Assembly (NCBI GenBank): GCA_963775425.1
Contig: CAVZJB010000009.1
Location: 80,616-144,615, forward strand
Origin: an uncultured delta proteobacterium
Lineage (GTDB): Bacteria > Myxococcota > UBA727 > VGSZ01
Length of the DNA stretch: 64,000 bases
Direction of reading: 5' to 3'
In this document: one piece after another, positions 15,883 to 46,978 of the stretch
How positions within the stretch are numbered: the stretch's first letter is position 1
How the letters are laid out: every line of letters begins with the position of its first letter
Notes under the pieces: model-generated
Seen by the model: the letters and a program-made list of their open reading frames with translations, nothing else
Databases searched by the model: none
What the model was told of the DNA's origin: nothing
Translations under genes and position numbers: made by a program

Positions 15883-15907
15883 CCCTCCATCACCGTGCAG
15901 ACCCGGC

Positions 15908-15942: not shown

Positions 15943-15970
15943 GCCGACAACGCCAGCGAAGGGGGCTCCC

Positions 15971-16216
15971 ATGGCGGACCTGAAGCCGACGTCGAAGAAG
16001 ACCCTGCAGAACGCGTTCGCCGAGATGGGCGACCGCAAGCTCATCCTGGTCGGCCCGGGCAACGCCCGCGTGCAGGACTCGCGCTTTGCCATCTCCGACG
16101 CCGCCGTGGACCACGTGGTCATCAAGCTGCTCGGGGAGGAGGTCCTCGTGATTCCGTACGCCTCCATCGGCTCCATGAAGGTGGAGCGGCAGCAGGTCAC
16201 GATCAGCTATCGTTGA
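15971..16216 (+). CDS. Small hypothetical protein of 81 aa
   Basis: ATG start with high GC3, beginning MADLKPTSKKTLQNAF…. It lies 4 nt upstream of the next lipoprotein gene. Confidence 0.45.
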   Translation: MADLKPTSKKTLQNAFAEMGDRKLILVGPGNARVQDSRFAISDAAVDHVVIKLLGEEVLVIPYASIGSMKVERQQVTISYR

Positions 16217-16219
16217 GCC

Positions 16220-16573
16220 ATGCGCACCCGCAGCGTTCTTGTGCTCGCCGTGCTCGGGGCCGCCCTGGCCGCGGCGAGCTCATGCGACGTCCTCGACCCG
16301 AAGGGCGAGGTGGTCACCTGCACCCAGCAGCAGTTGTGCGGTGAGGACGTCGCCACCGATCCGGTGACGGACACCTTCTGCACGGATCCCACCGACGCCG
16401 ACCGCGCCAGCCAGATCAAGCAGTACGAGAAGGACTACGCCGACACCTGCGCGGGCGCCCGCCTCACCTGCACCGGCGGCGCGCTCGACAACCAGCCCGC
16501 GGACTGCACCGCCAAATGCGTCACCGGCGGCGCGTGCGACTTCAACCCCGTCCCGCAGGCCGTCACGCTGTAG
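16220..16573 (+). CDS. Small Cys-rich lipoprotein
   Basis: It has a signal peptide with lipobox (LGAALAAASSC) and 8 Cys in the mature part. Confidence 0.55.
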   Translation: MRTRSVLVLAVLGAALAAASSCDVLDPKGEVVTCTQQQLCGEDVATDPVTDTFCTDPTDADRASQIKQYEKDYADTCAGARLTCTGGALDNQPADCTAKCVTGGACDFNPVPQAVTL

Positions 16574-29468: not shown

Positions 29469-30290
29469 TCAGCTGAGGAGCTTGATGATGTCGTCGACGT
29501 GGCCCAGCATGATCACCGAGTTCTTCAGCATGGTCTGGATGAACAGGTCGATGCAGAGGAAGAACACGATGCAGCCGCCGATGACCTTGGCGGGCATGGC
29601 CATGAAGTACGCGTTGATCTGCGGGGCCACGCGGTTGATGAGGCCGAAGGACGTCTCGAGCGTCAGCGTGACGATGCCGATGGGCATGGCGAGGAGCACC
29701 GCGATCTCGAGGATCTCGGCGGTGAGCCGCGCGTTGTACTCGACGAAGGCGGCGTAGCCGGCGTGGAAGTGCGGGAAGTCGTTGATGGGGACCGCGACGA
29801 AGCTCTCGAACAGCGACGCCAGGAACGGGTGGTGCAGATCCAGCGCCAGGAACAGGGCGAGCAGCAACTGGTACTGCAGCGTGCCGAACGCCGACGAGCG
29901 CTCCTCGATCTCGGGCACCTGCAACTGGATCTGGTTGGCGCCGCGCAGGATGTCGATGAGCTGGCCGGCGATCTCCACGGTGTAGAACACCTTGGACGCG
30001 ACGAAGCCGATGACGAGGCCGACGAAGGTCTCCTTCATCATCATGAGCGTGAACCCGATGGGCGTGATGGGCAGCCCGTGCTCCGGGCTGACGTTGGCGA
30101 GCACCGTGGGCCACAGCAGGATGGTGAGCGTGACGCCGACGCCCATCTTCACCTCGACGGGCGCGTTCTTGCCGCCGAGGAACGGCACGAGGACGACCAT
30201 GGCCATGATCCGCGCCATGATCAGCGCGAACACGACGATGGTCTTCGTCATGTCGAGCTGCTGCGCGAGTGCAGCCATGAAGTTCTGCAC
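29469..30290 (-). CDS. sctT: Type III secretion export apparatus protein SctT (FliR/YscT family)
   Basis: At 273 aa it is a polytopic membrane protein with the FliR/SctT pattern (…FLASLFESFVAVPINDF…MPIGIVTLTLETSFGLINRVAPQINAYFMAMP…). Confidence 0.8.
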   Translation of the reverse strand: MQNFMAALAQQLDMTKTIVVFALIMARIMAMVVLVPFLGGKNAPVEVKMGVGVTLTILLWPTVLANVSPEHGLPITPIGFTLMMMKETFVGLVIGFVASKVFYTVEIAGQLIDILRGANQIQLQVPEIEERSSAFGTLQYQLLLALFLALDLHHPFLASLFESFVAVPINDFPHFHAGYAAFVEYNARLTAEILEIAVLLAMPIGIVTLTLETSFGLINRVAPQINAYFMAMPAKVIGGCIVFFLCIDLFIQTMLKNSVIMLGHVDDIIKLLS

Positions 30291-30298
30291 GGCCGCTC

Positions 30299-30571
30299 CT
30301 AGTGGATCACGTCGGGGATGCTCCCGAGGCAGAGCGTCGCGAAGCGAAGCATCGTGGCCCCGAGCCAGCCGCCGGTGGCGGCGAGCACCGCGAAGACGGC
30401 GATCATCTTCGGGACGAAGGAGAGCGTCTGCTCCTGGATCTGCGTCGTCGCGGAGAACACCGCGACCAGCACGCCGATGAGCAGGCTCAACAAGATGGGG
30501 GGCATCGACACCACGATGGTGATGAGGATGGCCTCGTTCGTGATTTGAACGATGAAGTCCTGGACGGTCAT
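30299..30571 (-). CDS. sctS: Type III secretion export apparatus protein SctS (FliQ/YscS family)
   Basis: The 90-aa product MTVQDFIVQITNEAILITIVVSMPPILLSLLIGVLVAVFSATTQIQEQTLSFVPKMIAV is the typical FliQ hairpin. Confidence 0.8.
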   Translation of the reverse strand: MTVQDFIVQITNEAILITIVVSMPPILLSLLIGVLVAVFSATTQIQEQTLSFVPKMIAVFAVLAATGGWLGATMLRFATLCLGSIPDVIH

Positions 30572-31437
30572 TGGTACCCCAAGACGAGGCCGCGGGTGAT
30601 GAGGTACCACCCGTCTACGAGGACGAAGAGCAATATCTTGAACGGCAGCGAGATGGTTGTCGGCGACAGCATCTGCATGCCGAGCGCCATCAATATGTTC
30701 GACACCACCATGTCGATCACCAGGAACGGCACGAAGATGATGAAGCCTATCTGGAAGGCCTTGGTGAGCTCGCTGATGACGAACGCGGGCGTGATGATCA
30801 CGAGGTCGTCGGGCTGAAGCGACGCGCGGTCCTCCTCGGCGCGCAGCCGATAGGCGACGCGATAGAGCATCTGGCGGTTCTTCTCATTGCTGTTTTTGAG
30901 GAGGAACGCCTTGATGGGCTCCTTGGCCTGCTTGAGCGCGTCGACGATGATGTCGACGTTCTCCTTCTGCAGGAGGTCGCCGCCGCGTCTTATCTCGATG
31001 AGGCGGTCGACGCGGTTGTAGATCTGCAGACCCACGGGCTGCATCACGTACGCGGTGAGGATGATGGCCATGCCCGTGATGACGGTGGTGGGCGGCGCCT
31101 GCTGCGTGCCGATGGCCTGGCGGGTGATGGACAGGACCACCGCGATCTTGACGAAGCTCGTCACCATCATCCCGACGAAGGGGATGAGGGCGAGGCCCGC
31201 CATGGCCGTCATGAGGATGAGCGGGCGGTTGGAGATGGAGTCGTTGCCGAGGAGGTCGACGCCGCCGACGGTGGCGCCGTGGGCGATGCCGCGACCCTTG
31301 GCCAGGGCGACGCACGGCGCGAGCGACACGACGAAGAAGACGAACGTGGCCCAGCCCACCCCGCGGGCGAAGCGCAGGGTGCGCGGCTCGTCCTTGTGGT
31401 GTCCGAAGCAGGAGCGGAGGGCTTCGCGGAGCTTCAT
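30568..31437 (-). CDS. sctR: Type III secretion export apparatus protein SctR (FliP/YscR family)
   Basis: It has the conserved FliP core (PLILMTAMAGLALIPFVGMMVTSFVKIAVVLSITRQAIGTQQAPP…FVPFLVIDMVVSNILMALGMQMLSP). Confidence 0.85.
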   Translation of the reverse strand: MKLREALRSCFGHHKDEPRTLRFARGVGWATFVFFVVSLAPCVALAKGRGIAHGATVGGVDLLGNDSISNRPLILMTAMAGLALIPFVGMMVTSFVKIAVVLSITRQAIGTQQAPPTTVITGMAIILTAYVMQPVGLQIYNRVDRLIEIRRGGDLLQKENVDIIVDALKQAKEPIKAFLLKNSNEKNRQMLYRVAYRLRAEEDRASLQPDDLVIITPAFVISELTKAFQIGFIIFVPFLVIDMVVSNILMALGMQMLSPTTISLPFKILLFVLVDGWYLITRGLVLGYQ

Positions 31438-32153
31438 GCGGTGGCCTTCTCGTCGTCGTTCGTCTTCTTGGCGTCGCGGCGCCTGAGGGCGTCCATGAAG
31501 GACGGCGGCGGCGCCGCCGCGGCCTTGGTCTCCACGTCCTTCAGGAGCGTGACGCCGCCCTCGCCGGCGGCGAGCAGCATCTGCTTGCCGTCGACCTCGA
31601 CGAGGAAGAGCGAGCGCTTGGCGTCGAGGCCGACGCGCTCGACCACCTTGACCCGCCTGCCGAGGTTCTGGCGCTCGACGAGCTTGCCGAGCCCCTTGGA
31701 CAGCGTGAGGTACACGAGCCCGAGGACGATGCAGAGCATCAAGATGGTCTTCAAGAGCGGCCCGACGAGGTCGCCGAGCCCCGACTGCGGCGCCGGCAGC
31801 GGCTTGAGCGCGTCCGGATCCGGCGGGGGCGCCGGGGGCACCTGCGGCGCGGCGTGTGCCGCCGGGTTTGCCGCTGCGTCCCCGTCGTCCGCGCGCGCGG
31901 CGGCGACGTCCGCGCCGGTCGCGGGCGCCGCGTCGTCGTCGCCGGCGGGGTCGTCGCCGACGCCCGGCGGCGGCAGAACGAGCTTCACGGCGTCGTCGGC
32001 CGTGGCGTCGTCGTCGGCGGCGTGCGCGGCGGCGGTGCCGCCGAACGGCGCGCTGTCGCCGGCGTTGTCGGCGAGCGCGGGGCCGGCGAGCGCGAGCCCG
32101 ACGACGACGAGCATGGGCGACGGGAGGGAGCCACGCTGGAGCTTGCTGATCAC
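31434..32153 (-). CDS. FliO-like export-gate accessory protein with an N-terminal signal peptide and an Ala/Asp-rich spacer
   Basis: The TM and C-terminal region (LLKTILMLCIVLGLVYLTLSKGLGKLVERQ…RSLFLVEVDGKQMLLAAGEGGVTLL) follow the FliO pattern. Its stop overlaps the sctR start. Confidence 0.5.
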   Translation of the reverse strand: MISKLQRGSLPSPMLVVVGLALAGPALADNAGDSAPFGGTAAAHAADDDATADDAVKLVLPPPGVGDDPAGDDDAAPATGADVAAARADDGDAAANPAAHAAPQVPPAPPPDPDALKPLPAPQSGLGDLVGPLLKTILMLCIVLGLVYLTLSKGLGKLVERQNLGRRVKVVERVGLDAKRSLFLVEVDGKQMLLAAGEGGVTLLKDVETKAAAAPPPSFMDALRRRDAKKTNDDEKATA

Positions 32154-32263
32154 GGCCGCAGCTTAGCGCGCCGCGCTCCAGGCGTGGCGAGCGCCCCCGT
32201 CCGCGCGTGGGGCCGGGCCTACATCCGCGCCGGACCCCGGGCGGACGCCACGCGGGTGCCGGG

Positions 32264-33727
32264 TCATTTGACGAGGGAGAGGATCCGGACGCCCAGCTCG
32301 CCGTCGATCTCGACGAGCTCGCCCTTGCCGACGCGCTTGCCGTCGACGACGAGGTCCACGGGCTCGCCGGGGGCGCGCGACAGCTCGATGACCTGGCCCG
32401 CGCGCAGTTGGACGACGTCGGCGGCGGAGACCATCACGCGGCCGAGCTCGACGACCATCGCCACGGTGATGTCGTCGAGGAGGCCCGCGGCCTCGGGCGA
32501 GGGCTCGTCCTCGGGCTCCTCTTCCCCGTCGGAGTGCTCGGCCCCCGGCTCGTCGTCGACCGCGGTGCCACCCGGGAGCGGCGCGCCCCCGCCGGCGTCG
32601 TCGATGGGGGCGGCGACGCGGTCGGCGGCCTCCCGGCGCAGCCGGGACCCGAAGGCGTCGGCGTCGACGAGACCCGCAGCGGACAGCCGCTTGGCGTTTT
32701 CTTCCATCTCCCCGCCTTCTACCTCGCCGAAGCCCTCGTGGAACAGATGCGCCTTTGCGCGCGGCTCGCCCGCGGGCGAGATGGCCTCGATCTGGACCTC
32801 GTAGCGCCCGCTGTCGCCGACGACGAGCGCGCCGGAGATGACGCCGCGGTGCCCGTCGCCGAGCCGGCACTGCACGCGGCCGCTCAGCGTTTGCGGCTGG
32901 TCCTCGTCCTCGGGCGGCACGATCGTCACTTCGCTCTCCTCGACGAGGATGATGTCGTCGATCTCGAGGGACTCCACGTCCGCCATCTGCAGACCGATGC
33001 GGCCTACCTCGACCACGAGCGGCGCCGTCAACAGCCGCACCACGTCGATGCGCTCGTCGAGCCGGCGGAGCCAGCGCGACAAGGCCGGGCCCTCCGCGGG
33101 GACGTCGGGCGAAAACGCGTCGCGCACGAAGCTCTCCGGCAAGTAGACGCGGCAGAAGCCCACCTTGACGTCGAAGAACAGCCGGAAGCTCAGGCACAGC
33201 AGGGGCGCGTCGACCGGGAAGCGCTCCGCGAGCGACGCCATGGTCCCGTGGACCCCCTCGAGCTTCAACGCCACGTCCTTGTCGGCGGCCCCCTCCTGCA
33301 GGAGCTGCAGCACGCGCAACAGCACGAAGGAGAACACGCCGTCCTCGATCTCCGACAGCGGCCTTTGTCCGTCGGCGTCCTCGGCGTTCCCCCCGAGGAG
33401 CTTGTCGATGGCCTGCTGCGCCACGGTGAGATCCACCTCGAGGAGCGCCTTCTCGGTGCGCGGCGGCAGCCCGATGACGGCGGCGCACGTGGGCTCCGCG
33501 AGGACCTGCGCGAGCTCTCCGTCGCCGAGCGCGCGCACGCCCTCGAACCACAGCTCGACGTCCGCGTGGACGAGCGGCCCGAGCATGTCCTTGAGCCAAT
33601 CCTTGAAGTCGCTCTCGAACGCCGTCTGCGGTAGGTGACACAACAGCGCGTTTTGCACCTGCACCTGCCGGCGGCTGATGCGGGGGAGCGTTCCCTGCAG
33701 CTTGAACTTGCGGAGCTTCCTCGCCAT
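32264..33727 (-). CDS. sctQ: Type III secretion cytoplasmic-ring protein SctQ, with a SpoA (FliN/YscQ) C-terminal domain
   Basis: The C-terminal ITVAMVVELGRVMVSAADVVQLRAGQVIELSRAPGEPVDLVVDGKRVGKGELVEIDGELGVRIL is a SpoA domain. Confidence 0.7.
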   Translation of the reverse strand: MARKLRKFKLQGTLPRISRRQVQVQNALLCHLPQTAFESDFKDWLKDMLGPLVHADVELWFEGVRALGDGELAQVLAEPTCAAVIGLPPRTEKALLEVDLTVAQQAIDKLLGGNAEDADGQRPLSEIEDGVFSFVLLRVLQLLQEGAADKDVALKLEGVHGTMASLAERFPVDAPLLCLSFRLFFDVKVGFCRVYLPESFVRDAFSPDVPAEGPALSRWLRRLDERIDVVRLLTAPLVVEVGRIGLQMADVESLEIDDIILVEESEVTIVPPEDEDQPQTLSGRVQCRLGDGHRGVISGALVVGDSGRYEVQIEAISPAGEPRAKAHLFHEGFGEVEGGEMEENAKRLSAAGLVDADAFGSRLRREAADRVAAPIDDAGGGAPLPGGTAVDDEPGAEHSDGEEEPEDEPSPEAAGLLDDITVAMVVELGRVMVSAADVVQLRAGQVIELSRAPGEPVDLVVDGKRVGKGELVEIDGELGVRILSLVK

Positions 33728-34803
33728 CAGTCCTCGAAGACCTCGCGGATATCTTCCTTGATCTCGTCCACGGCTTCCTTTTTCTTGCCGGGGAAAAGCA
33801 GGCTGAGCCCGATCCCGGCCCCCAACAATCCACCCACGACGACGAGTGACAACGGGGTCGGCACGTGGGTCGGCGCCTCGGGCCACACCCAGGCGAGGAG
33901 CGGCAGGCACATCTTGGCCCCGATGAAGCCGAGCACCAAGCCGAGCGCCGGCTTGAGGAACCGGAGCCCCCACAGCGCGCCCGACAGCAGGAAGAACAGC
34001 GACCGCAGGCCCAGGATGGCGAAGATGTTCGAGGTGTAGACGATGAACGGGTCCAGGGAGATGCCGAACACGGCGGGGATGGAGTCGAGCGCGAAGACCA
34101 CGTCGCTGAGCTCGACCGACACGAGGACGAGCAGGAGCGGCGTGGCCTTCCTGACGCCCTCTTTGAGCGTGAAGAAGCGGTGGCCGTCGTAGCTGTCGGT
34201 GACGCGGACGAAGCGGCGGGCGAGCTTGACGACGCGGTTGTCCTTGACGTCGCCTTCGTCGTCGCCGCCGCGCTCGACGATGAGCTTGATGCCGCTGTAC
34301 AGGAGGAACGCGCCGAAGACGTAGATGAGCGCGTGCACCGTGGACAGAAGCGCGGTGCCGCCGATGATGAACACGCCGCGCAGGACGACGGCGCCGAAGA
34401 TGCCCCAGAACAGCACGCGGTGCTGGTAGGCGTCGGGGACCTTGAAGGCGTGAAACAGGAGCAAGAAGACGAAGAGGTTGTCGACGGACAGCGAGTACTC
34501 GATGACGTAGGCCGAGAAGAACTCGAGGCCGCTCTCACGGTCCGACAGCACGAGGACGGCGACGCCGAACCCGCAGCCGAGCGTCACCCACACGATGGTC
34601 CACGCGAGCGCCACGCGCTTCTTCATCGGCGCGTCGCTGCGGCTCCCGATCCACAGGTCCACCGCCAGCACCACGACGACGATGGCCGTGAACGCGATCC
34701 ACAGCGCCGGGGTGCCGATGGAGTGCACCCGGGGGAAGTACCCGCTGAGGGGACGGGTGCCAAGCAAGACCCGCGGCGCAGCGATGCGCGGGCGCGCGCC
34801 CAC
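33727..34803 (-). CDS. TerC family integral membrane protein. The start is uncertain; a GTG near 34724 is possible.
   Basis: It has the TerC signature YSLSVDNLFVF plus repeated TM topology. Its stop overlaps the sctQ start (TGATG). Confidence 0.75.
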   Translation of the reverse strand: MGARPRIAAPRVLLGTRPLSGYFPRVHSIGTPALWIAFTAIVVVVLAVDLWIGSRSDAPMKKRVALAWTIVWVTLGCGFGVAVLVLSDRESGLEFFSAYVIEYSLSVDNLFVFLLLFHAFKVPDAYQHRVLFWGIFGAVVLRGVFIIGGTALLSTVHALIYVFGAFLLYSGIKLIVERGGDDEGDVKDNRVVKLARRFVRVTDSYDGHRFFTLKEGVRKATPLLLVLVSVELSDVVFALDSIPAVFGISLDPFIVYTSNIFAILGLRSLFFLLSGALWGLRFLKPALGLVLGFIGAKMCLPLLAWVWPEAPTHVPTPLSLVVVGGLLGAGIGLSLLFPGKKKEAVDEIKEDIREVFED

Positions 34804-34809
34804 GCTTCG

Positions 34810-35715
34810 TCAGCGGGTCTCGAGGCGGGCCAGCGACAGGCCCTTCTTGTCGAGGCGGCGCATGAGGTCTCCCTTGGAAGCCTCGATGAGCCGCTTGCTG
34901 TTCTGATCGAGGTTCTCGAAGCGCAGCGAGACCTTGCCGTCCTCGGCGGACACGCGCATGCGCGCGCCCTTGAGCGGGCCGTCCTTCAGCTCGATCTGGA
35001 ATTCCTTGAGGCCCTTGTCGTTGACGGCGAGGTGCACGGCGCTGACGAGCTTGTCGAGGAGCTCGGCGGGGATCTGCTTGACCTCGTGCGCCGGCGCCGC
35101 CCCCTGCGCCGCCTGCAACTGAGCGGCCTTGACGGCGCCGAGCGCGCCGGCGCCCTCGCGGCCGCGCCCGTCGGACTCGCCCTTGCCGTCGGCGTCGATG
35201 GCGGCGTTGGGCAATGCGGCGTTGCGAGCGTCGAGCTGCACCGCCTCCGCGTCCATCTCCTTGGCCGTCTCCTTCTTGTCGAGGTCGACCTTGCGATCGT
35301 CGCGCTCGACGCGGTCGTGCTCGACGCCCTGCTGGCGCCGCACGAAGCGGCCCGTGTCCGCCGACTGCGTCGCCGTGGCGTTCTTGTTGAGCACGCCCTG
35401 GAAGCCCTTGGCCTGCTGCATCGCGCGCGTCTGCTTCTGGATGCCGCTCCTGGCGAGGCGCGCGGCCTGGGCCTCGCTGTGGGCCTCCTTGGCGACGTGC
35501 TCGCCCTCCTGCTCGGCGTGGTGCTCCTCGTGCTGCGCCTTGAGCGCCTTGTCCTTCGTCGTCTCGGCGGTGCGCTGCCCGGCGCGCACCAGCTTGCCGA
35601 ACGCCGCACGGTTCTTCTCGGTGGACTTGGCGTCGCGGGCGTTCTTGTCGAGCTTCTTCTGGAGCCGCTCAGCCTCCGCCCTTTTGTGGGCGTCTTCTTC
35701 GACACGCGTGGACAT
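34810..35715 (-). CDS. sctP: Hook/needle-length control protein, FliK/SctP-like with a Flg_hook C-terminal domain
   Basis: The N-terminus is a charged coiled-coil. The C-terminus (…LLDKLVSAVHLAVNDKGLKEFQIELKDGPLKGARMRVSAEDGKVSLRFENLDQNSKRLIEAS…) matches the FliK C-terminal domain. Confidence 0.6.
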   Translation of the reverse strand: MSTRVEEDAHKRAEAERLQKKLDKNARDAKSTEKNRAAFGKLVRAGQRTAETTKDKALKAQHEEHHAEQEGEHVAKEAHSEAQAARLARSGIQKQTRAMQQAKGFQGVLNKNATATQSADTGRFVRRQQGVEHDRVERDDRKVDLDKKETAKEMDAEAVQLDARNAALPNAAIDADGKGESDGRGREGAGALGAVKAAQLQAAQGAAPAHEVKQIPAELLDKLVSAVHLAVNDKGLKEFQIELKDGPLKGARMRVSAEDGKVSLRFENLDQNSKRLIEASKGDLMRRLDKKGLSLARLETR

Positions 35716-35802
35716 GAAAAACCCCGGTGAAAAGCATCGCGGAGTGTATCGGCGCCGCCGCCGACGGGGGTGCGACCCCGTCATGACGCGGCGCGCCGTC
35801 CG

Positions 35803-36054
35803 TCAGCGACGCGCGGCGGCGAGCTCCTCGCGGAGCTTTTCGATCTCCTCGCGGAGCTTCTCGTTTTCGCGCTGGACCTCGTCGGCCGTGGGCGGCGGCG
35901 GGTCCTCCTTGGCGGCGGCCCCGTCGCGCGGCCCCAGGCGCTTTTTCATGTGCGCGCCGGCGACCTTGGCGATCTCCACGCCGACGCCCGCCAAAAGCGC
36001 CTTCCCCAGCGTGCGCCCGAGCTCCGCGATGACCTTTCCCACGGAGGCGTTCAT
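35803..36054 (-). CDS. Small coiled-coil protein of 83 aa
   Basis: High GC3. Its start overlaps the sctO stop. The C-terminus reads ENEKLREEIEKLREELAAARR. Confidence 0.4.
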   Translation of the reverse strand: MNASVGKVIAELGRTLGKALLAGVGVEIAKVAGAHMKKRLGPRDGAAAKEDPPPPTADEVQRENEKLREEIEKLREELAAARR

Positions 36055-36563
36055 GCGTCACCGAGCTCCTCGAGGAGCTTCTGGAAGTACTGGGCCTGCG
36101 CGATGTCCTCGGCGGCCATCTCTTCCTTCAGCATGCGCTCGCGCTTCACCTGCTTGAGCCACTTTTCCTTGTGCTTCTCGAGGGCTTTGAAGTCCTGCGT
36201 ACATTTCACGACAACTTCCATGGCTTCGGCGGCGATGCGCTCGGCTTCCTGAACGCGCTCTTGCTGCCTGTCGATGTCCACCTGGTAGGCCTCTTCCTGC
36301 TGCTTGAGTCGCTCGATGTGCCGGTCGTTTTGCTGGATCTGGCTCACGGTGTACTCGCCCATGCGGGTGCGCTCGGCGTACTCGGCCTTCTTGTTCTGGC
36401 GCATCTGCACCATCTCTCTGAGCTTCTGGCGCATCTCGTCGAGCTTGCGCTCCTCCTCGACGACCTTCCTGCGCTTCTCCGCGTAGGCCTCCTCGGCCTC
36501 CTTCTTCTTCTTCTCCCGCATCTCGTAGAGGACCTGCAGGCGGTACGCCGGCGACTTGGCCAT
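36051..36563 (-). CDS. sctO: SctO/FliJ-like stalk protein, all coiled-coil, 170 aa
   Basis: Its size, all-helical Lys/Glu/Arg-rich composition and position (downstream of the ATPase, upstream of sctP) match SctO/FliJ. Confidence 0.5.
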   Translation of the reverse strand: MAKSPAYRLQVLYEMREKKKKEAEEAYAEKRRKVVEEERKLDEMRQKLREMVQMRQNKKAEYAERTRMGEYTVSQIQQNDRHIERLKQQEEAYQVDIDRQQERVQEAERIAAEAMEVVVKCTQDFKALEKHKEKWLKQVKRERMLKEEMAAEDIAQAQYFQKLLEELGDA

Positions 36564-36637
36564 ATGGGATGAGATTACCGTCTGCTCGCGGCGGCGTCAT
36601 TGCACAGGCCGCTTCCGGGCGTGGTACGTGCTGCTCT

Positions 36638-38417: not shown

Positions 38418-38421
38418 TTCT

Positions 38422-39855
38422 TCAGTCCTGGGCGTCCGCGAACATCTCCACCAGCGCCTGCACCGTGTCCTCGAACGCGGAGGCCTCCGTGGTGCCCTGC
38501 TTGAGGAACGTCTCGACCTCTTCGATCTTGTCGATGGCGTAGTCGACCTGCGGATCGGTGCCGTACTGGTACGCGCCGAGGAGGATGAGGTCGCGGTTCT
38601 TCTCGTAGGTGGCCATCACCTGCCGCATCTTGGACGCGGCCTTTTTGTGCTCGTCGGCGGCGATGCCGGTCATCACGCGGGACAGCGACGGCAGCACGTC
38701 GATGGCGGGCCAGTGGTTTCGCGCGCCGAGCTCGCGGTTGAGGATGACGTGGCCGTCGAGGATGCCGCGCACCTCGTCGGCGATGGGCTCCTCCATGTCG
38801 CCGCCTTGCACGAGGATCGTGTACATCGCGGTGATGGAGCCGATGTGGTTGTTGCCGGTGCGCTCCATGAGCTTCGGGATGAGCGCGAACACGCTCGGCG
38901 GGTAGCCCTGGCGCGCAGGCGGCTCGCCGAGCGCGAGGCCGATCTCGCGCTGCGCGCGGGCGAAGCGGGTGGAGCTGTCCATCATGAACAGGACGTCCTT
39001 GCCCTCGTCGCGGAACCACTCCGCCACCGCCGTGGCGACGAAGCAACACTTGAGGCGCACGAGCGAGGGCTGGTCCGACGTGGCGCACACGACGACGGAG
39101 CGCTTGAGGCCCTCTTCGCCGAGGGAGTCGTGGATGAACTCGAGCACCTCGCGACCGCGCTCGCCGACCATGCAGACCACGACGATCTCGGCGGAGGTCT
39201 GCCGCGCGATCTGTCCCATCAACGTCGACTTGCCGACGCCGGAGCCCGCGAACAGGCCGACGCGCTGGCCGCGGCCGACGGTGAGCAGGCCGTCCCACGC
39301 GCGCACGCCGAAGGAGATGACGCGATCGACGGGTTGGCGCGTGTAGGGATCGGGGCACTCGCGCTCGACGGCCCAGTCCTCGAGGCCCTCGATCTCCTCG
39401 ATGGAGCCGAGGCCGTCGATGGGCTCGCCGGTGCCGGAGAGCGTTCGGCCGAGCAGGCCGTAGCCGCACTTGATCTGGAACGGCTTGCCGCTCGGGATGA
39501 CCTCGCTCTCGGGGCCGAGCCCGGCGTTCTTGGGATTGCCGAGCGGCATCAAGAAGACGGCGCCGTCCTTGAAGCCGACGACCTCGGTCTTGAGCGCGCC
39601 GACGTCTTCCTTGGGCGACGTCACGTAGCACATCTCGCCGATGCGCACGCCCGGCACCGCAGCCTTGATGATGAGGCCGGTGACCTCGGTGACGCGGCCG
39701 CGGACGCGGTACGGCTTGGCCTCGCGGATCTCCTCGATGGCCCGACGCAGCTCGATGACCTTGCCCTCGGGGACGCCGTCGACGTGGGGCGCGGGCTCGC
39801 CGACGAGGTTCTCCTCAAGGGCGTCGAAGTCCGGCTTCTTGCGCGTGGTGGTCAT
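38422..39855 (-). CDS. sctN: Type III secretion ATPase SctN (FliI/YscN family)
   Basis: It has Walker A (GLFAGSGVGKSTL), Walker B (VLFMMDSSTRFA) and the F1/T3SS ATPase fold. It is 477 aa. Confidence 0.9.
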   Translation of the reverse strand: MTTTRKKPDFDALEENLVGEPAPHVDGVPEGKVIELRRAIEEIREAKPYRVRGRVTEVTGLIIKAAVPGVRIGEMCYVTSPKEDVGALKTEVVGFKDGAVFLMPLGNPKNAGLGPESEVIPSGKPFQIKCGYGLLGRTLSGTGEPIDGLGSIEEIEGLEDWAVERECPDPYTRQPVDRVISFGVRAWDGLLTVGRGQRVGLFAGSGVGKSTLMGQIARQTSAEIVVVCMVGERGREVLEFIHDSLGEEGLKRSVVVCATSDQPSLVRLKCCFVATAVAEWFRDEGKDVLFMMDSSTRFARAQREIGLALGEPPARQGYPPSVFALIPKLMERTGNNHIGSITAMYTILVQGGDMEEPIADEVRGILDGHVILNRELGARNHWPAIDVLPSLSRVMTGIAADEHKKAASKMRQVMATYEKNRDLILLGAYQYGTDPQVDYAIDKIEEVETFLKQGTTEASAFEDTVQALVEMFADAQD

Positions 39856-42026
39856 TGGCCCTTGAGGATCGCCCTCACCTTGGAGGCGTCCTCCGCGTCG
39901 GGCTTGAGCTCGAGGTACTTCCGGTAGTGCTTGCGCGCGAGATCGTTCTTCTTGAGCTTGGCGTAGGCCACGCCGAGCGTGCGGTGCACGTTGGCGTTGT
40001 TGCCGTTGACGTAGGGCGCGAGCTCGCTCACGGCGGCGCCGGGATCGCCCGCGAAGATCTTCTGGGTGGCGCTGCTCAGCGCCTTGTTGATCTCGGCCTG
40101 CTTGTTGTGGTGCGTGACGCGGGGCTCGTCGGTCTTGCGCTTGTGCTTGGGCTCCGCTCGCACGGCGTGCCCGCCGCTGTCGCCCGCGGCGTCGTCGGCG
40201 GCGGCGAGGGCGGCGTCGTCGTCCGCGCCCGCGGCGGCGCCGTCGTCATGCGCGTCGCCCGGGGCGGCGTCGTCGTGCGCGGCGGCGTCGTCTGCGCCCG
40301 CGGCGGCGGCGGCGGCGGCGGGCGCGTCGTCCCCGGTGGGGCCGACGTCGGGCTTGGCGCCGCTGCCGTCCGGGACGGGCGCCGTGTCGGGCGTCGTCGG
40401 CGTCGGTGAGGCCGCGGCGGTGGGTGGGGGCGGCGTGGGCTTGTCGTCGCCGCCGCTCGTGGCGACGAGCACGGCGATCACCGCGAGCAGCGCGATGACG
40501 ACGACGACGCCGATGACGATGATGTTCGGGCGGCCGCTCGGCTGCGAGAAGCCCTCGAACGGCGCCGCCGACACCGCGTCCGCCTGCTTCTTGCGAACGG
40601 GGTTGGTGACCCCGGTGCCGGCGTCCTGCTCGAAGTCGTCGCCGGCGGTGTCGGCGATGCGGGCGCGCTCGATCTCCTCGGGGGAGACGGCGAAGCGCTC
40701 GCCGATGGCGACGAAGCGAAGGCGGACGCGGCCGAGCTCGACGACGTCGCCGGGCTTCAACACGGCCTGCTCGACCTCCTCGTTGTTGACGAGGACGCCG
40801 TTGGCGCTCTTGAGATCGAGGATGCGCACGCGATCGCCCTCGCGCACCACCTTGGCGTGGTTTCGCGAGACCGACTTGTGCTCGATGGTGATGTCGTTGT
40901 CCTCGGTGCGCCCGAGCACCGCCTCCGCCGCACGCAGCGAGAAGGTGCTGCCCGCGAAGATGGTGTTGAGCACCACCAGGCGCGGGTACACCACGTCCTC
41001 GGCGCCGGGCGCGGCGCGCATGGCCTCGGTCTGCTCCTCGAGGGCGGTGCGTGCGTCGTTGGGACGCGCCGGCGCCGCCGGCGTCCCCGGCGCGCGCCCG
41101 TTGTCCGGCGACGGCGTGGCCGGCCGCGCGTCGGGGGCGCGGTCCTGCGCCCGCGGCTCGGGCTTGGTCTCGAGCACCCCGACGTGGCCGCCGATCTCGG
41201 GCACCGCCGCCGTCGGCGATCCCTCCGCCTTGTGCGCCACCGCCTTGTGCGCCGCCGGCGGCGGCGCGGGCGGCATGGTGATGGGCGGCGGCGACGTCGC
41301 CTGGCGCACCGTGGGCTCGAGCTCGGCCTCGCGCTGTCGCGACGGCAGCGCCGCGGCGTCCACAGTGGGCGCCTCCATGGCTTCGAGCATCTCCATGGTG
41401 ACGCGCTCGGTGTCGCCGCCGTCGGGATCGAAGCCGCTCCGCGCGTTGCTGCCGTTTTCCGGCGCCGGCTGCGGCGCGGGCTGCGCCCCCGCGACCGCGG
41501 GCGACGGCACCGTGCGCTCGTCGCTGAGCGGGTGATCTTCCTGGGTGGCGAGCCCGGGCACCGACAGCGCGGGTCCGCCCTGCGGAGGCTCCCAACGCTG
41601 CGTGTCGCCGGCGAACTCGTCGTCGTCGGGGCCGTGGGGAGCGGTGTCGCGGTGCAGCGGCTGCGTGGCCTGGGCGCCCTCGGCCGCGCCGTTGTGCGGG
41701 TGTTGCGGCGCGGTCACGCCGAGGGTGTCCTGCGCGTGAAGCGCGAGGTGGTAGTCGCCGATCTGGATGGTGTCGCCCTCGTGGACGTGCACCCGGCCGT
41801 CGATGCGATCCCCGTTGAGCTTGATGCCGTTGAAGCTCTTCAGGTCCTCGATCAGGACGTGGCCGTTCTCCTTCGAGAGCTTGGCGTGGTTGCGGGAGAC
41901 GTTCCGCTCCGTGAGCCGGATGGTGTTCCCTTCTTTACGCCCGATGGTGATGACGTCGCGCGTGAACGGCACGACGATCTGCTTGCCCGCATCGTCTTCG
42001 ATGATCAGCTTCCAGGTCGAAGGCAT
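39852..42026 (-). CDS. Membrane protein with two FHA domains, one TM helix, a Pro/Ala/Asp-rich periplasmic region and a C-terminal TPR-like motif
   Basis: The two FHA cores are (ITIGRKEGNTIRLTERNVSRNHAKL…NGIKLNG) and (FSLRAAEAVLGRTEDNDITIEHKSVSRNHAKV…NGVLVNN). The TM is IIVIGVVVVIALLAVIAVLV. Its stop overlaps the sctN start (ATGA). Confidence 0.7.
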   Translation of the reverse strand: MPSTWKLIIEDDAGKQIVVPFTRDVITIGRKEGNTIRLTERNVSRNHAKLSKENGHVLIEDLKSFNGIKLNGDRIDGRVHVHEGDTIQIGDYHLALHAQDTLGVTAPQHPHNGAAEGAQATQPLHRDTAPHGPDDDEFAGDTQRWEPPQGGPALSVPGLATQEDHPLSDERTVPSPAVAGAQPAPQPAPENGSNARSGFDPDGGDTERVTMEMLEAMEAPTVDAAALPSRQREAELEPTVRQATSPPPITMPPAPPPAAHKAVAHKAEGSPTAAVPEIGGHVGVLETKPEPRAQDRAPDARPATPSPDNGRAPGTPAAPARPNDARTALEEQTEAMRAAPGAEDVVYPRLVVLNTIFAGSTFSLRAAEAVLGRTEDNDITIEHKSVSRNHAKVVREGDRVRILDLKSANGVLVNNEEVEQAVLKPGDVVELGRVRLRFVAIGERFAVSPEEIERARIADTAGDDFEQDAGTGVTNPVRKKQADAVSAAPFEGFSQPSGRPNIIVIGVVVVIALLAVIAVLVATSGGDDKPTPPPPTAAASPTPTTPDTAPVPDGSGAKPDVGPTGDDAPAAAAAAAGADDAAAHDDAAPGDAHDDGAAAGADDDAALAAADDAAGDSGGHAVRAEPKHKRKTDEPRVTHHNKQAEINKALSSATQKIFAGDPGAAVSELAPYVNGNNANVHRTLGVAYAKLKKNDLARKHYRKYLELKPDAEDASKVRAILKGQ

Positions 42027-42110
42027 CCGCGAGTGCGCACTCCTGGCCGGCATCATACGTCGACGAACAGGCCGGCCGCCAAGCCGTGACCGGCGCTGTG
42101 TTTGGAGACC

Positions 42111-43373
42111 CTATCGCACACCGCGGGCGATGTTCTTGCCCGCCGGCCACCGCCGGATGACGTCCAGGGCGGCGGCCACCTGCGGATCCCGCTTGACCCG
42201 CTCCGCCCCGTGGATGCCCGGCGGCAGATCCGCGGCCGGACGCACCGGGACGTCCGGCTCGATGCCGACGTCCTGGATGGAGCGCCCGCTCGGGGTGAAG
42301 TAGCGGGCGATGGTGAGCTTCAGCCCGGCGCCGTCGTCGAGCCCGAACAGCGTCTGCACCGATCCCTTGCCGAAGGTGCGGGTGCCGACGACCACGGCGC
42401 GCTTGTGGTCCTGGAGCGCCCCGGCGACGATCTCGCTCGCCGACGCGGTCCCGTCGTTCACGAGGAGCACCAGCGGGTAGTCCGGCTCCGTCCCCTCCGG
42501 CCGCGCCACCTCCCGCTCCGTGTTCCTCGGGTTCCTGCCCTGGGTGGTGACGATCAGGCCGTCTTTGAGGAAGCGGTCCGCCACGCGCACGCCCTCGTCG
42601 AGGAGGCCCCCGGGGTCGTCGCGCAGGTCGAGCACCACGCCCGCCGGCTGCTGTTTGCCGAGCGCCCGCGCCCGCTTGCGCGCCCCCGCCAGCGCGTGCG
42701 CCAGCTCCTGGTCGGTGCGCTCCTGGAACGCGCGGATGCGGACGTAGGCGATGTCGTTGCCGAGGTCGTCGTCGTCGACGGAGGGCACGCGCACCTGCCG
42801 GCGCACGAGCGGGATGTCCCGCGCATGATCCCAGCCCTTGCGCGCCACAGTGAGGACCACGCGGGTGCCGGGGACGCCGCGCATGAGCTTGACGCTGGCC
42901 TCGAGCGGCTGGCCGCGCATGCTCTCGCCGTCGACGGCGAGGATCTTGTCACCGGGCTTCAAGCCCGCGTGCGCTCCCGGGCTGTCCGCGTGCACGACCT
43001 CCACCTGGATGACGTCGCCGCCGGGCTCTTTGTAGGGCCCCACCTCGATGCCGAGCCCGCCGAACTCGCCCGCGGTGTCCTCGCGGAGCTTCTCGTACTC
43101 GGCGGGGCGCATGAAGGTCGTGTGGGGGTCGAGGCCGGAGAGCATGCCCGTGATGGCGTCGTAGACCAGCTCGTCCGGGTCGAGCTCGTCCACGTAGTTC
43201 TGCTGCACGTACGTGAGCACCTGCGAAAACACCCGCAGCTTCTTGTACGTGCCGTCGACGCCGCCGGCGTACGCGACGCCTGCGCCGCCGGCGAGGACGA
43301 CGCCGCACAACAGTCCTGCGACGAACGCAGCGAGGGAAGGCGTGCGGAACAGCGGGGGACGGCGCATGGACAC
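42111..43373 (-). CDS. Carboxyl-terminal processing protease, S41 family, with a PDZ domain
   Basis: It has the PDZ segment (GLKPGDKILAVDG), the S41 catalytic region (…LLVNDGTASASEIVAGALQD…GTRTFGKGSVQ) and an N-terminal signal/anchor. Confidence 0.85.
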   Translation of the reverse strand: MSMRRPPLFRTPSLAAFVAGLLCGVVLAGGAGVAYAGGVDGTYKKLRVFSQVLTYVQQNYVDELDPDELVYDAITGMLSGLDPHTTFMRPAEYEKLREDTAGEFGGLGIEVGPYKEPGGDVIQVEVVHADSPGAHAGLKPGDKILAVDGESMRGQPLEASVKLMRGVPGTRVVLTVARKGWDHARDIPLVRRQVRVPSVDDDDLGNDIAYVRIRAFQERTDQELAHALAGARKRARALGKQQPAGVVLDLRDDPGGLLDEGVRVADRFLKDGLIVTTQGRNPRNTEREVARPEGTEPDYPLVLLVNDGTASASEIVAGALQDHKRAVVVGTRTFGKGSVQTLFGLDDGAGLKLTIARYFTPSGRSIQDVGIEPDVPVRPAADLPPGIHGAERVKRDPQVAAALDVIRRWPAGKNIARGVR

Positions 43374-43404
43374 CTCGGGTTGCCGAGTCTATAGCGACCG
43401 GCCC

Positions 43405-45248: not shown

Positions 45249-46874
45249 TCACTCCTTCGGCTTGGGCGGGACGGGCTCGAGGATGAGACCGAGGTCCTCG
45301 GCGCTCGGGATGGGCGCGGCGATGCCGGGCTGGATGCGCGTCCTCTCCTCGGGCTCCTCGTCGACGTCCTCTCTGCGCCGACGCATGGGCAGGCCGACGG
45401 GGATCACCGGGATCACCGGGACGACGGGCACCGCCGACGCCGCGCCGCGACCGGCGATCGGTGACGCGCCGCGGATGCCGGCGGCGGACCTCATCTTCGC
45501 GGGCGGAGCGGCGGCCGCGGCCGCGGCCTGCAGCAGCGCGGGGTCGGCGATCGTGGTCATCTCGACGCTCTCGTCGCGGAGCTGCGGGAAGGCGGCGCCG
45601 GGGGGCGGCTCGAGGTCGTCGACGGGCGGTGGCGCGGCGCGTGGCGCGAAGCCGCGCGGCGTCACCGCGGGCGGCTCCGGCTCGGCTTGCGCCTCCGCCG
45701 CGGCGAGGAGCATCGCGGCGTCGGCGACCATGGTCATGTCGATGCCGTCGTCGTGGACGTCGTCGAACACGGCGCCGGCGCCCGCGTCGACCTCGATGTC
45801 GGCGTAGGCGTCGGGGGCGCGCGCGGCGGGCGCGTCCTTCGGCTGCGGCCCGCCACGGTACACGCCGGTGTCGTCGCGAGGCCGCACCACGGGCGACGGC
45901 GCGGGGGGCTCGGAGATCTCGTCGAGCAGACGGTCGCGCGCCGGGCTCGTGTGCACCTCGTCGGTGCGCTCGCTGTCCTCGAAGGACGCGCCGTCCGTGT
46001 GGATGTCGAGGTCGAGCTCCGGCACCTGCGGCTGCTTCGGCGCGGGCATCGACAGGCCGCGCAGCGCGCGCTCGATGCACTCGAGCGCCTCCGCGTGGGT
46101 CTTCACGCGCTTGCTGCGGTCCTTCTCCAGGAGGCGATCGACGAGGTCGACGAGGCCCTGCGGACCCGGCACCGACGCGGCCAGCGACGGCGGCGGCGTG
46201 CTCACCTGCGCATGCAGGAGCGACGCGGGGCTCCCCACGAACGGCGTCTTGCCCGTGACGCACTCGTACAGGACGCAGCCCAGCGCGTAGAGATCGCTGA
46301 GCGGGTCCGGCGGCGTGCCGACGAGGATCTCCGGCGCCAGGTACGCCGGCGTGCCGCGCACCGACTCCGTGCCCTCCACCGGCGCCGGCAGCAGGAAGTC
46401 GCCGAGCTTGGCGCGGCGCAGGTCGCCCTCGGGCAAGAGCACGTTGCGCGGCTGGACGTCGCCATGCGCGAGGCCGACCGACCAACCCGCCTGTAGCCCG
46501 AGGCAGATCGCGCGCGCCACCTCGAGGGCCTCGGCGCTCTTGAGCGGGCCGCGCTCGAGGCGCGCGGCGAGGCTCTCGCCCTCGACGAGCTCCATCACGA
46601 CGTACGGCACGTTGTTGTAGACGGACACGTCGTTCACGCGCACGACGTGCGGTGAGCTGATCTTCTCCACGAGCAAACGGTCGCGCATCAAGCGGTCGCC
46701 GGCCGCGGCGCGCCTGGTGCGCAGCACCTTGATGGCGACCTGCGCGTCGTCGGCGTCGAGGTCCGCGAGGCGGCAGACGAAGACACGTCCGACGGCGCCG
46801 CCTCCAATGAGGCGCACGATGCGGTGCTTCCCGATGGTCGCACCGAGGACCGTGGAGCTCTTGGCGTCGGCCAT
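45249..46874 (-). CDS. Hanks-type Ser/Thr protein kinase-like protein with non-canonical catalytic motifs (possible pseudokinase) and a long Pro/Ala-rich C-terminal tail
   Basis: The Gly-loop (GGGAVGRVF), VAIK and APE (PAYLAPE) motifs are present. The HRDLKPxN motif is replaced by HGDVQPRN and DFG by DFL. Confidence 0.7.
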   Translation of the reverse strand: MADAKSSTVLGATIGKHRIVRLIGGGAVGRVFVCRLADLDADDAQVAIKVLRTRRAAAGDRLMRDRLLVEKISSPHVVRVNDVSVYNNVPYVVMELVEGESLAARLERGPLKSAEALEVARAICLGLQAGWSVGLAHGDVQPRNVLLPEGDLRRAKLGDFLLPAPVEGTESVRGTPAYLAPEILVGTPPDPLSDLYALGCVLYECVTGKTPFVGSPASLLHAQVSTPPPSLAASVPGPQGLVDLVDRLLEKDRSKRVKTHAEALECIERALRGLSMPAPKQPQVPELDLDIHTDGASFEDSERTDEVHTSPARDRLLDEISEPPAPSPVVRPRDDTGVYRGGPQPKDAPAARAPDAYADIEVDAGAGAVFDDVHDDGIDMTMVADAAMLLAAAEAQAEPEPPAVTPRGFAPRAAPPPVDDLEPPPGAAFPQLRDESVEMTTIADPALLQAAAAAAAPPAKMRSAAGIRGASPIAGRGAASAVPVVPVIPVIPVGLPMRRRREDVDEEPEERTRIQPGIAAPIPSAEDLGLILEPVPPKPKE

Positions 46875-46978
46875 CTCACCGGTTGTATCCCCCCACCTGC
46901 GACGAGGAAAGAACGCGAACGATGTGGCTCGACCGTTTTCGCGCTCGTGCGCGGCCTTTTTGTTCGTATGCTGCACCC

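Follow-up and report, generated by a model that had tools for sequence, protein, structure and literature searches.

A tandem-FHA membrane protein encoded between an S41 protease and a T3SS ATPase in an uncultured member of the Myxococcota: a possible kinase-read scaffold

What is a membrane protein with two FHA domains doing between an envelope protease and the ATPase of a T3SS-like machine? The question is raised by the FHA2x gene (39852-42026, minus strand), which sits between an S41 (CtpA-type) protease gene and a T3SS ATPase gene in the window, that is, the whole stretch of 64,000 nucleotides that was analysed. The minus-strand reading frame 39852..42056 is open for 734 codons, and an upstream ATG at 42056 is an alternative start that would give a protein of 734 aa. 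The second ATG, MPSTWKLIIEDD, was taken as the start; it lies at 42026, the coordinate given in the earlier note, and is also used by homologues and by the public annotation (P0001, a 724-aa protein with 100% identity). The GC3 of 0.93 indicates that FHA2x is coding. Its 724-aa product is ordered as FHA, a 240-aa disordered linker, FHA, one TM helix, a 115-aa Ala-Asp-Pro spacer and about 2.5 TPR repeats. The earlier note had described two FHA domains, one TM helix, an Ala/Asp/Pro-rich periplasmic region, a TPR-like C-terminus and an ATGA overlap with sctN, all of which was borne out by Pfam, hydropathy, composition and the sequence itself.

The S41 C-terminal-processing protease gene (42111..43373, minus strand) lies 54-84 nt upstream of FHA2x on the same strand and encodes PDZ and Peptidase_S41 domains with an N-terminal signal or anchor. 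On the other side, the FHA2x stop and the sctN start overlap in ATGA (...GGC CAA TGA / ATG ACC...), and no terminator-like site was found on the minus strand between 43373 and 38422, the span from the S41 gene to sctN. The sctN/fliI-type ATPase gene (38422..39855, minus strand) encodes 477 aa of the FliI/YscN family, with Pfam matches to PF00006 (E 3e-84) and T3SS_ATPase_C (E 1e-26) and with NCBIfam matches to TIGR02546 (587 bits) and FliI_clade2 (575 bits), both slightly below the equivalog cut-offs. The rest of the T3SS-like cluster follows on the minus strand from sctO to sctT (29469..36563): sctO (36051-36563), an 83-aa ORF (35803-36054), a sctP/HpaP-like gene (34810-35784), terC (33727-34803), sctQ with FliM and FliN_C domains (about 32264-33730), a fliO-like gene (31434-32153), sctR (30568-31437), sctS (30299-30610) and sctT (29469-30290). 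Among the window ORFs scanned no sctL, sctD, sctJ, sctU, sctV or sctC was found, in agreement with the earlier observation that no sctL is visible. The accompanying remark that sctL normally lies upstream of sctN is true of the flagellar arrangement, where fliH is the gene before fliI, and is not known to extend to every injectisome cluster.

About 3.2 kb upstream of FHA2x there is a Hanks-type Ser/Thr kinase homologue (45249..46976, minus strand). Its catalytic loop is HGDVQPRN and the position of the DFG motif reads DFL; with such atypical catalytic motifs (HGD..Q..N, DFL) the protein may be inactive. L006 and L007, the closest relatives, have the homologue at the equivalent position, and L001, L004, L013 and L015 lack it there.

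Pfam FHA (PF00498) matches FHA2x twice, with a whole-protein E of 1.1e-33 and a score of 115.8 bits (gathering threshold 20.7). FHA domain 1 (41727..42026, minus strand; residues 1-100, predicted to be cytoplasmic) scores 60.6 bits with pLDDT 86-97, and FHA domain 2 (40689..41006, minus strand; residues 341-446) scores 67.4 bits. Across 110 homologues the invariant columns are G29-R30, S44-R45-x-H47 and N71-G72 in the first domain and G372-R373, S387-R388-x-H390 and N409-G410 in the second. GR, SxxH and NG motifs are the pThr-binding determinants of FHA domains (PMC3162421), and the canonical forms are present in both domains of FHA2x. The second domain is close to GarA in sequence (phmmer E 1.6e-12) and in fold (Foldseek TM 0.86-0.95, rmsd about 1 A; AlphaFold pLDDT above 90). 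The best Foldseek ranks for FHA2x were taken by GarA, OdhI, DgcB, EmbR and FhaA, the DgcB and EmbR matches being phosphopeptide complexes on which the predicted beta-sandwich can be superposed, and sequence and fold searches taken together (phmmer, profile, Foldseek) placed these five and Rv1747 first. Judged by motifs and predicted fold, the FHA domains of FHA2x are genuine domains of the canonical pThr-binding type.

The linker between them (41007..41726, minus strand; residues 101-340; 18% Ala, 17% Pro) has pLDDT of about 40-50 and no secondary structure in the AlphaFold model and is predicted to be intrinsically disordered. It carries five conserved Thr islands, T142, T161, T206, T239 and T333, which are 79-100% conserved; the remaining linker is unalignable. 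T142 lies in the linear motif DDEFAGDTQRWEPP (41583..41624, minus strand; residues 135-148), in which D136, F138, G140, D141, T142, Q143, R144 and W145 are invariant among 19 clade members (D-x-F-x-G-D-T-Q-R-W). This GDTQRW segment is a candidate for a phosphorylation site and for a ligand of the FHA domains. T333 belongs to an invariant E-x-T333-E directly before FHA domain 2, a position similar to that of the conserved Thr shortly N-terminal to the FHA domain of GarA and OdhI. In architecture and in conservation, FHA2x resembles a module of the Rv1747 type, its two FHA domains being connected through a disordered segment with conserved Thr. On the side of the ATPase, SctN has a Thr cluster at its N-terminus that shows no conservation, and therefore SctN yielded no FHA ligand.

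Only one hydrophobic segment exists in FHA2x, the TM helix IIVIGVVVVIALLAVIAVLVA (40461..40523, minus strand; residues 502-522), where Kyte-Doolittle values reach 3.6 against a maximum of 1.16 elsewhere. It is followed by a periplasmic low-complexity spacer (40116..40460, minus strand; residues 523-637) with 29% Ala, 18% Asp and 14% Pro, which is predicted to be disordered, and by a C-terminal TPR-type domain of five helices (39855..40115, minus strand; residues 638-724) with pLDDT 93-98. Pfam TPR_1/TPR_2 is matched at residues 688-720 (734-aa numbering) with E 3e-5, slightly below the cut-off, and a profile built from 110 homologues matches consensus TPR proteins with E 6e-66. According to the model, FHA2x is a bitopic inner-membrane protein with its FHA domains in the cytoplasm and its TPR domain in the periplasm.

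Architecture and synteny together point to a scaffold that is anchored in the membrane, is under kinase control and connects a periplasmic protease with the T3SS ATPase, a reading to which we would give about an even chance. A Hanks-type kinase, either the homologue at 45249-46976 or another in the genome, would phosphorylate the linker at T142 (GDTQRW), T161, T206, T239 and T333, and the resulting pThr sites would be bound by the FHA domains of the same or of another molecule. Such binding could cluster FHA2x at the membrane, comparable to the FHA-linker-FHA module of Rv1747 and the Fha1 scaffold of the T6SS, or could instead relieve autoinhibition, the GarA/OdhI mode of control. Phosphorylation on the cytoplasmic side would then govern how the co-translated SctN ATPase complex is recruited, or how active it is, at an export apparatus of a flagellum-like, needle-less kind. 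In the periplasm the TPR domain would most likely dock the co-encoded S41 protease, comparable to NlpI-Prc and LbcA-CtpA, and this docking would tie local envelope proteolysis to the export machine. The earlier suggestion of an FHA-based, pThr-dependent regulator of the ATPase is compatible with all of the findings and gains support because of the invariant pThr motifs, the Thr islands of the linker, the nearby kinase gene and the clade-wide retention of FHA2x next to sctN; it stays a proposed function. Against the scaffold view it should be noted that the TPR domain is generic and TM-tethered and is not part of a lipoprotein, unlike that of NlpI and LbcA. The atypical neighbouring kinase and the rarity of sctN next to family members also speak against it.

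Several known systems share parts of this design. FHA scaffolds couple Ser/Thr-kinase signalling to assembly or ATPase recruitment in the T6SS, as Fha1 does in the PpkA-Fha1-ClpV1 pathway. Rv1747, one of the best matches, has tandem canonical FHA domains and a disordered Thr-bearing linker, with pThr sites at T152 and T210 (PMC8339232). In FHA2x, unlike Rv1747 and GarA/OdhI, a TM helix and a periplasmic TPR domain are attached to the module, which is neither joined to an ABC transporter nor free-standing; the partner genes of FHA2x encode a protease and a T3SS ATPase, and its phospho-acceptor sites are candidates only. FHA proteins encoded with a secretion machine are also seen in the T6SS (Fha1/TagH) and in Kil/Tad systems: Fha forms condensates in the T6SS (bioRxiv 10.1101/2023.12.21.572528), and the Myxococcus Kil system is FHA-rich (KilD), with an ATPase, KilF, that is fused to an FHA domain (PMC8460266). 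The TagH model TIGR03354, however, scores 66.4 bits on FHA2x, under its cut-off of 120.25, and belongs to another secretion system and domain architecture. For the periplasmic part, T3SS function in P. aeruginosa depends on CtpA, and CtpA on its TPR partner LbcA (PMC6050968, PMC8764530). NlpI-Prc and LbcA-CtpA likewise pair a periplasmic TPR module with an S41/PDZ protease, and the FHA2x gene adjoins a protease gene. Whereas NlpI and LbcA are lipoproteins of the outer membrane and carry numerous TPRs, FHA2x is predicted to be anchored in the inner membrane, has about 2.5 TPRs in this species and, unlike them, combines a cytoplasmic signalling module with an internal TM helix; its binding to the protease is putative.

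The strongest competing explanation comes from the wider family. The homologues of FHA2x form a large uncharacterised Myxococcota family, with more than 2,400 matches at E <= 1e-5 among 8,000 scored candidates. An S41 gene, the commonest conserved neighbour, is directly upstream in 57 of 127 informative family loci. Across the family loci, 77 have S41, 40 have rhomboid and none has both; an envelope protease gene (S41/CtpA-like or rhomboid) adjoins family members almost always. The rhomboid partner belongs to family members of the Cystobacterineae. This association with the upstream protease, which is wider and stronger, was absent from the earlier note. By comparison, sctN lies downstream in only 9 of 112 informative loci over the whole family, and four close relatives that bear the TQRW motif (L084, L014, L086 and L010) have no sctN downstream; the family therefore has a function for which the ATPase is dispensable. 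FHA2x could accordingly have an envelope protease as its only partner, being an adaptor or substrate of S41 (of rhomboid in the Cystobacterineae) that relays kinase signals to proteolysis or the reverse, and its adjacency to sctN would be inherited synteny. In Bacillus sporulation, bitopic regulators are cut by enzymes of the CtpB type, and single-pass proteins are rhomboid substrates. The mutual exclusion of S41 and rhomboid, the linker motif shared with relatives that lack sctN downstream, and the TPR partners known for S41 proteases (PMC6050968, PMC8764530) all favour such a role. However, FHA2x overlaps sctN translationally here, and in the sctN-adjacent loci examined (L001, L004, L006, L007, L012, L013, L015, L080 and L085) the two genes overlap or lie no more than about 110 nt apart. 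All sctN-adjacent FHA2x genes, including that of the window, fall in one clade of a rough NJ tree. The S41-FHA2x-sctN trio stays intact in genomes that carry fliO-sctRST or sctO-P-terC-Q-fliO-RST elsewhere, and its retention where the remaining T3SS cluster is dispersed is hard to explain by drift alone. We consider a role with the protease alone possible, though rather doubtful.

A different relation to the T3SS would make FHA2x a functional counterpart of the SctD cytoplasmic domain, possibly its evolutionary precursor, in a needle-less flagellum-like T3SS lineage. A pThr-competent membrane scaffold would here dock the ATPase and the sorting platform, and CdsD and the degenerate FHA domains of injectisome SctD would have been derived later. 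This idea, an improbable one, takes its basis from the FliM-type SctQ, the FliO, the lack of a visible sctD, and a related, fuller cluster (L085) that encodes SctJ and a FliG-like protein; no sctD or sctL was found in L085.

The earlier note had gone further and proposed a divergent SctD analogue, and this we now regard as very unlikely. FHA2x would then oligomerise around SctJ as the outer ring of the inner membrane, where SctD is a 24-mer, and replace the missing SctD of a basal T3SS, its FHA domains docking the sorting platform. The topology does match, since members of the SctD family, CdsD included, are encoded in T3SS clusters, cross the inner membrane once and have an N-terminal FHA fold in the cytoplasm and a C-terminus in the periplasm; FHA2x adjoins sctN, and sctD was seen neither in the window nor in L085. 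The chlamydial CdsD (CT664/Cpn0712), which is accepted as an SctD, likewise carries two FHA domains with a long linker between them and is a substrate of PknD (PMC2765968); Foldseek gave a significant match to the FHA domain of CdsD (3gqs; E about 2e-7). Where YscD, PrgH, MxiG and EscD have ring-building motifs (alpha-beta-beta-alpha-beta modules), however, FHA2x has 115 disordered residues and about 2.5 TPR repeats, with no alpha-beta ring-building domain in the AF2 model or by profile. In profile searches of the PDB, the 60 best matches were all TPR or canonical FHA proteins, and no YscD, PrgH or MxiG chain was in the Foldseek top 50. NCBIfam at E <= 0.01 returned only sub-threshold FhaB, OdhI, EspA, TagH and GltG models, and no match to the YscD/HrpQ family, which we take to be TIGR02500. 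The full pThr pocket distinguishes FHA2x from MxiG-N (PMC3162421), most family members are away from T3SS genes, and SctJ with a FliG-like protein in L085 and the FliM-like N-terminus of SctQ here would make a flagellar-style C-ring link available without SctD. PF16697, the 'YscD cytoplasmic domain', is non-diagnostic for SctD because it matches the unrelated GarA FHA domain equally strongly (61.8 bits). FHA2x was rejected as an SctD for its lack of ring-building domains, its canonical FHA domains, which are like those of GarA, OdhI and EmbR and unlike those of YscD, PrgH and MxiG, and the absent YscD/HrpQ match. It is scarcely credible that FHA2x, standing in the fliH position (fliF-G-H-I-J-K order), replaces SctL/FliH as the stator that tethers the ATPase hexamer to the C-ring, for which the order FHA2x-sctN-sctO-sctP-sctQ-fliO-sctRST, mirroring fliH-I-J-K-(M/N)-O-P-Q-R, and the lack of sctL in the window and in L085 can be cited, but FliH, HrpE and NolV Pfam matches are absent, the linker is predicted to have no helix or coiled coil, a TM helix anchors FHA2x whereas SctL is soluble, being a coiled-coil dimer with a C-terminal domain that binds the ATPase, and sctL could lie elsewhere with sctU, sctV and sctJ.

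Ser/Thr-kinase-read FHA scaffolds trigger T6SS assembly, and needle-less T3SS-like machines are implicated in bacterial predation by M. xanthus; among type III systems, CdsD was the only precedent found for a scaffold of this kind. If the scaffold reading is right, the activation of needle-less T3SS-like machines could be approached through this conserved operon of uncultured Myxococcota, in which a periplasmic protease, a tandem-FHA membrane protein and a T3SS ATPase are encoded together; the operon also hints at how these machines might be coordinated with envelope remodelling. Should only the ordinary reading be true, there would be one more FHA signalling protein, together with the caution that PF16697 does not identify SctD. 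A large uncharacterised family, placed next to an S41 or a rhomboid protease and never both, is newly defined in either case.

Two smaller features of the family may be added. A conserved helix (EIERARIAD; 40644..40682, minus strand; residues 449-461; pLDDT of the block about 91-95) follows FHA domain 2 and is kept in A1 and A3. In many homologues the periplasmic spacer is replaced by additional helical or TPR repeats.

The G+C content of the window is about 71%, and FHA2x, the gene for the two-FHA-domain membrane protein studied here (39852-42026, minus strand), has a GC3 of 0.93. Its ORF runs from 42056 to 39852 on the minus strand. The second ATG (42026) agrees with the N-termini of all homologues (M-x-x-x-W/F-K-L-I-I-E-D-D), and the public gene call, P0001, is a 724-aa protein 100% identical to FHA2x from 42026. 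Thus, the coordinates in the earlier note are right, and every element of its sequence observation was confirmed. Pfam detected both FHA domains, with an E-value of 1.1e-33, as well as a TPR at the C-terminal end, corresponding to the TPR-like C-terminus. A hydropathy scan gave exactly one TM segment (residues 502-522), and the stretch described as rich in Ala, Asp and Pro (residues 523-637) contains 29% Ala, 18% Asp and 14% Pro. The stop codon of FHA2x overlaps the ATG of the gene for a 477-aa FliI/YscN ATPase (ATGA).

An AlphaFold2 model of FHA2x was built with 110 homologues. FHA1 (residues 1-100) and FHA2 (341-446) were modelled at pLDDT >90 and are separated by a linker of 240 residues without secondary structure. 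FHA2 is followed by a short conserved helix (449-461) and then by the TM helix; on the periplasmic side a disordered stretch leads to a C-terminal set of five helices (pLDDT 93-98). The C-terminus of the family profile matches designed consensus TPR proteins (E 6e-66), and its FHA part matches GarA, OdhI, DgcB, EmbR, FhaA and Rv1747. GarA shows 41% identity, with an rmsd of about 1 A and TM 0.86-0.95. The GR, SxxH and NG motifs, the pThr-binding determinants of FHA domains (PMC3162421), are kept in both FHA1 and FHA2 and are invariant over 110 sequences. In sequence and in fold, the FHA domains of FHA2x are closest to proven pThr readers.

Conservation in the linker was scored in an alignment of 19 clade members, in which five islands, each with a threonine, stand out from an otherwise unalignable region. 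T142 (D-x-F-x-G-D-T142-Q-R-W) and T333 (E-x-T333-E, about 15 residues ahead of FHA2) are invariant; T161 (T161-Q-E) is conserved at 95%, T206 (G-D-T206-E-R) at 89% and T239 (E-P-T239-x-R-Q) at 79%. Rv1747 carries its pThr sites T152 and T210 in the linker between its FHA domains (PMC8339232), and FHA2x likewise has conserved Thr residues in a disordered linker joining two predicted pThr readers. The position of T333 just N-terminal to an FHA domain resembles the GarA/OdhI switch. A Hanks-type Ser/Thr kinase homologue is encoded about 3.2 kb upstream of FHA2x (45249-46976, minus strand), and its synteny is shared by the closest relatives, the loci L006 and L007. In this protein HGDVQPRN replaces HRDxKxxN and DFL replaces DFG, so its activity is uncertain; the motifs could fit either a non-RD kinase or a pseudokinase. 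It has a long Ala/Pro-rich C-terminal tail. The TTT at the N-terminus of SctN was considered as a conserved FHA ligand and rejected, as only (S)-A-LEENLVG is conserved there.

The kinase gene, an S41/PDZ C-terminal-processing protease gene (42111-43373), FHA2x, sctN (38422-39855) and sctO to sctT all lie on the minus strand. No terminator-like sites were found on this strand from the protease gene to the end of sctN; the promoter scan gave no sigma-70-like sites, a result that is uninformative for this phylum. Between the kinase and protease genes the longest ORF of a phosphoglucomutase gene (43213-45156, plus strand) shares about 160 nt with the 5' end of the S41 gene, and the phosphoglucomutase gene probably starts further downstream than this ORF. 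This divergent pair is kept in L001, L004, L006, L007, L013 and L015. The T3SS-like cluster (29469-39855, minus strand) has flagellar-type features. The ATPase scores 587 bits on the SctN model and 575 bits on the FliI clade 2 model, below both equivalog cut-offs. After sctN come sctO, an 83-aa ORF, a sctP/HpaP-like gene, a TerC-family gene, sctQ, a FliO-like gene, sctR, sctS and sctT; SctQ is FliM-like at its N-terminus and FliN (FliN_C) at its C-terminus. The TerC-family gene encodes an integral membrane protein (33727-34803, minus strand) and is conserved in this T3SS type, being found between sctP and sctQ also at L007 (15668-16705) and L167 (6778-7737). TerC is not known as a T3SS component. 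It had been noted earlier that no sctL is visible, and this holds across the 64-kb window, in which no sctL, sctD, sctJ, sctU, sctV, secretin or needle gene was found.

Between sctN and sctO lies a coding sequence of about 1.86 kb for a polytopic membrane protein (36569-38417, plus strand). The frame of its GC3 periodicity changes near 37400, suggesting that the gene is frameshifted or that two ORFs abut. It has no Pfam match and no homologue in 168 loci. Its identity with the PMT_2-like gene found near FHA2x in other lineages was rejected, there being no similarity. The spacing of sctN and sctO in the closest relatives, L006 and L007, is only about 0.5 kb.

More than 2,400 database proteins have the FHA-FHA architecture, usually with a TPR; they are 570-880 aa long and nearly all from Myxococcota. 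A metagenome scan with the single FHA2x protein as query gave no matches, and when repeated with A3, an alignment of homologues, it gave 80 loci. In all, 165 loci of the family were gathered from genomes and metagenomes. L084 carries a second FHA-FHA paralogue of 586 aa (14793-16553), 3 kb downstream of its FHA2x gene, so genomes can hold several members. When L003 and L016-L083 (Cystobacterineae) were compared with the loci having S41, it was found that the protease occurs in 77 loci and a divergently transcribed rhomboid-TPR gene in 40 (Cystobacterineae), and both in none. Members of the rhomboid clade are followed by a response-regulator/HTH gene and have a PMT_2-like gene 4-6 kb upstream. 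All sctN-adjacent genes group in a single clade of a rough NJ tree (the window, L006, L007, L001, L013, L015, L080 and L085), sister to the rhomboid clade and separate from a large clade with S41 only.

Within the sctN clade the junction of FHA2x and sctN is an overlap or a gap of at most about 110 nt, and the protease-FHA2x-sctN trio stays together even in genomes that have their other T3SS genes at a different place. Only sctN follows FHA2x in L001 and L004. A SctR search placed fliO-sctRST of L013 about 130 kb from the trio on the same 331-kb contig; among its best 120 matches there was none in the 6.98-Mb L001 genome. In a relative of that genome sctO-P-terC-Q-fliO-RST forms a separate block. 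In the window a gene for an AlkZ-like DNA glycosylase (27513-28766, minus strand) is found just past sctT; in L001, L004, L013 and L015 it lies just past phosphoglucomutase, upstream of the trio, and the sctO-to-sctT block is absent at this site. Its placement is consistent with rearrangements that moved this block.

Because FHA2x is so closely tied to sctN throughout the clade, it may recruit or gate the ATPase complex of a needle-less, flagellum-like export apparatus. Most simply, the cytoplasmic FHA-linker-FHA module would be anchored in the inner membrane and act as a kinase-read switch or as a device for clustering. T6SS Fha1 is a precedent for an FHA protein arrangement of this kind. Others are the Myxococcus Kil system, whose KilF ATPase is fused to an FHA domain (PMC8460266), and CdsD, which is phosphorylated by PknD (PMC2765968). 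On the simplest reading, the S41 protease encoded alongside would dock on the periplasmic TPR, which sits on a long flexible spacer. NlpI is such a docking partner for Prc, and LbcA for CtpA; in P. aeruginosa T3SS function depends on CtpA (PMC6050968, PMC8764530). As the main rival explanation, FHA2x would work with the S41 protease only and its adjacency to sctN would be historical. The protease is directly upstream in 57 of the 127 loci with enough upstream sequence, and sctN directly downstream in 9 of the 112 with enough downstream sequence. In L084, L014, L086 and L010, four close relatives that share the linker motif, FHA2x is followed by unrelated genes, and these contexts count against retention of the trio. 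FHA2x as a pThr-dependent regulator of the ATPase, one of two roles proposed in the earlier note, is a plausible candidate role. FHA2x is a new, T3SS-ATPase-linked variant of already known FHA signalling scaffolds, and it belongs to a large uncharacterised myxobacterial family linked to envelope proteases.

The other proposed role, that of a SctD analogue, is not supported. FHA2x is not SctD by the defining feature of that protein, its periplasmic ring-building motifs: the periplasmic region of the AlphaFold2 model has none, nor an alpha-beta domain of any kind. The NCBIfam scan listed FhaB, OdhI, EspA, TagH and GltG models only, all sub-threshold, and no YscD/HrpQ-family model. YscD, PrgH and MxiG chains were absent from the best 50 fold matches, among which the FHA domain of chlamydial CdsD (CT664) ranked 33-34. 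PF16697 ("T3SS inner membrane component, cytoplasmic domain") matches FHA2x at 103 bits. This was rejected as evidence for SctD since the GarA FHA segment, taken as a control, also scores 61.8 bits; the match means "FHA" and not "SctD". Moreover, the FHA domains of FHA2x keep the pThr motifs, whereas MxiG-N has no functional pThr pocket (PMC3162421).

A flagellar-style link between membrane ring and C-ring seems to be available without SctD, since SctJ and a FliG-like protein are encoded upstream of the protease gene in L085, a related cluster. The L085 FliG-like protein matches FliG_M (30.1 bits) and FliG_C (27.9 bits), both above the Pfam threshold. A non-flagellar T3SS with FliG contrasts with the statement that Myxo systems are without it (PMC3459982). 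A search with the L085 SctJ as query gave only 15 matches, all from the L085 lineage or an unrelated T3SS, and none from the lineage of the window. The FliG-like and SctJ genes of L085 (3666-5650, minus strand) adjoin a gene for a PMT_2-like membrane protein and are divergent from the protease-FHA2x-sctN trio.
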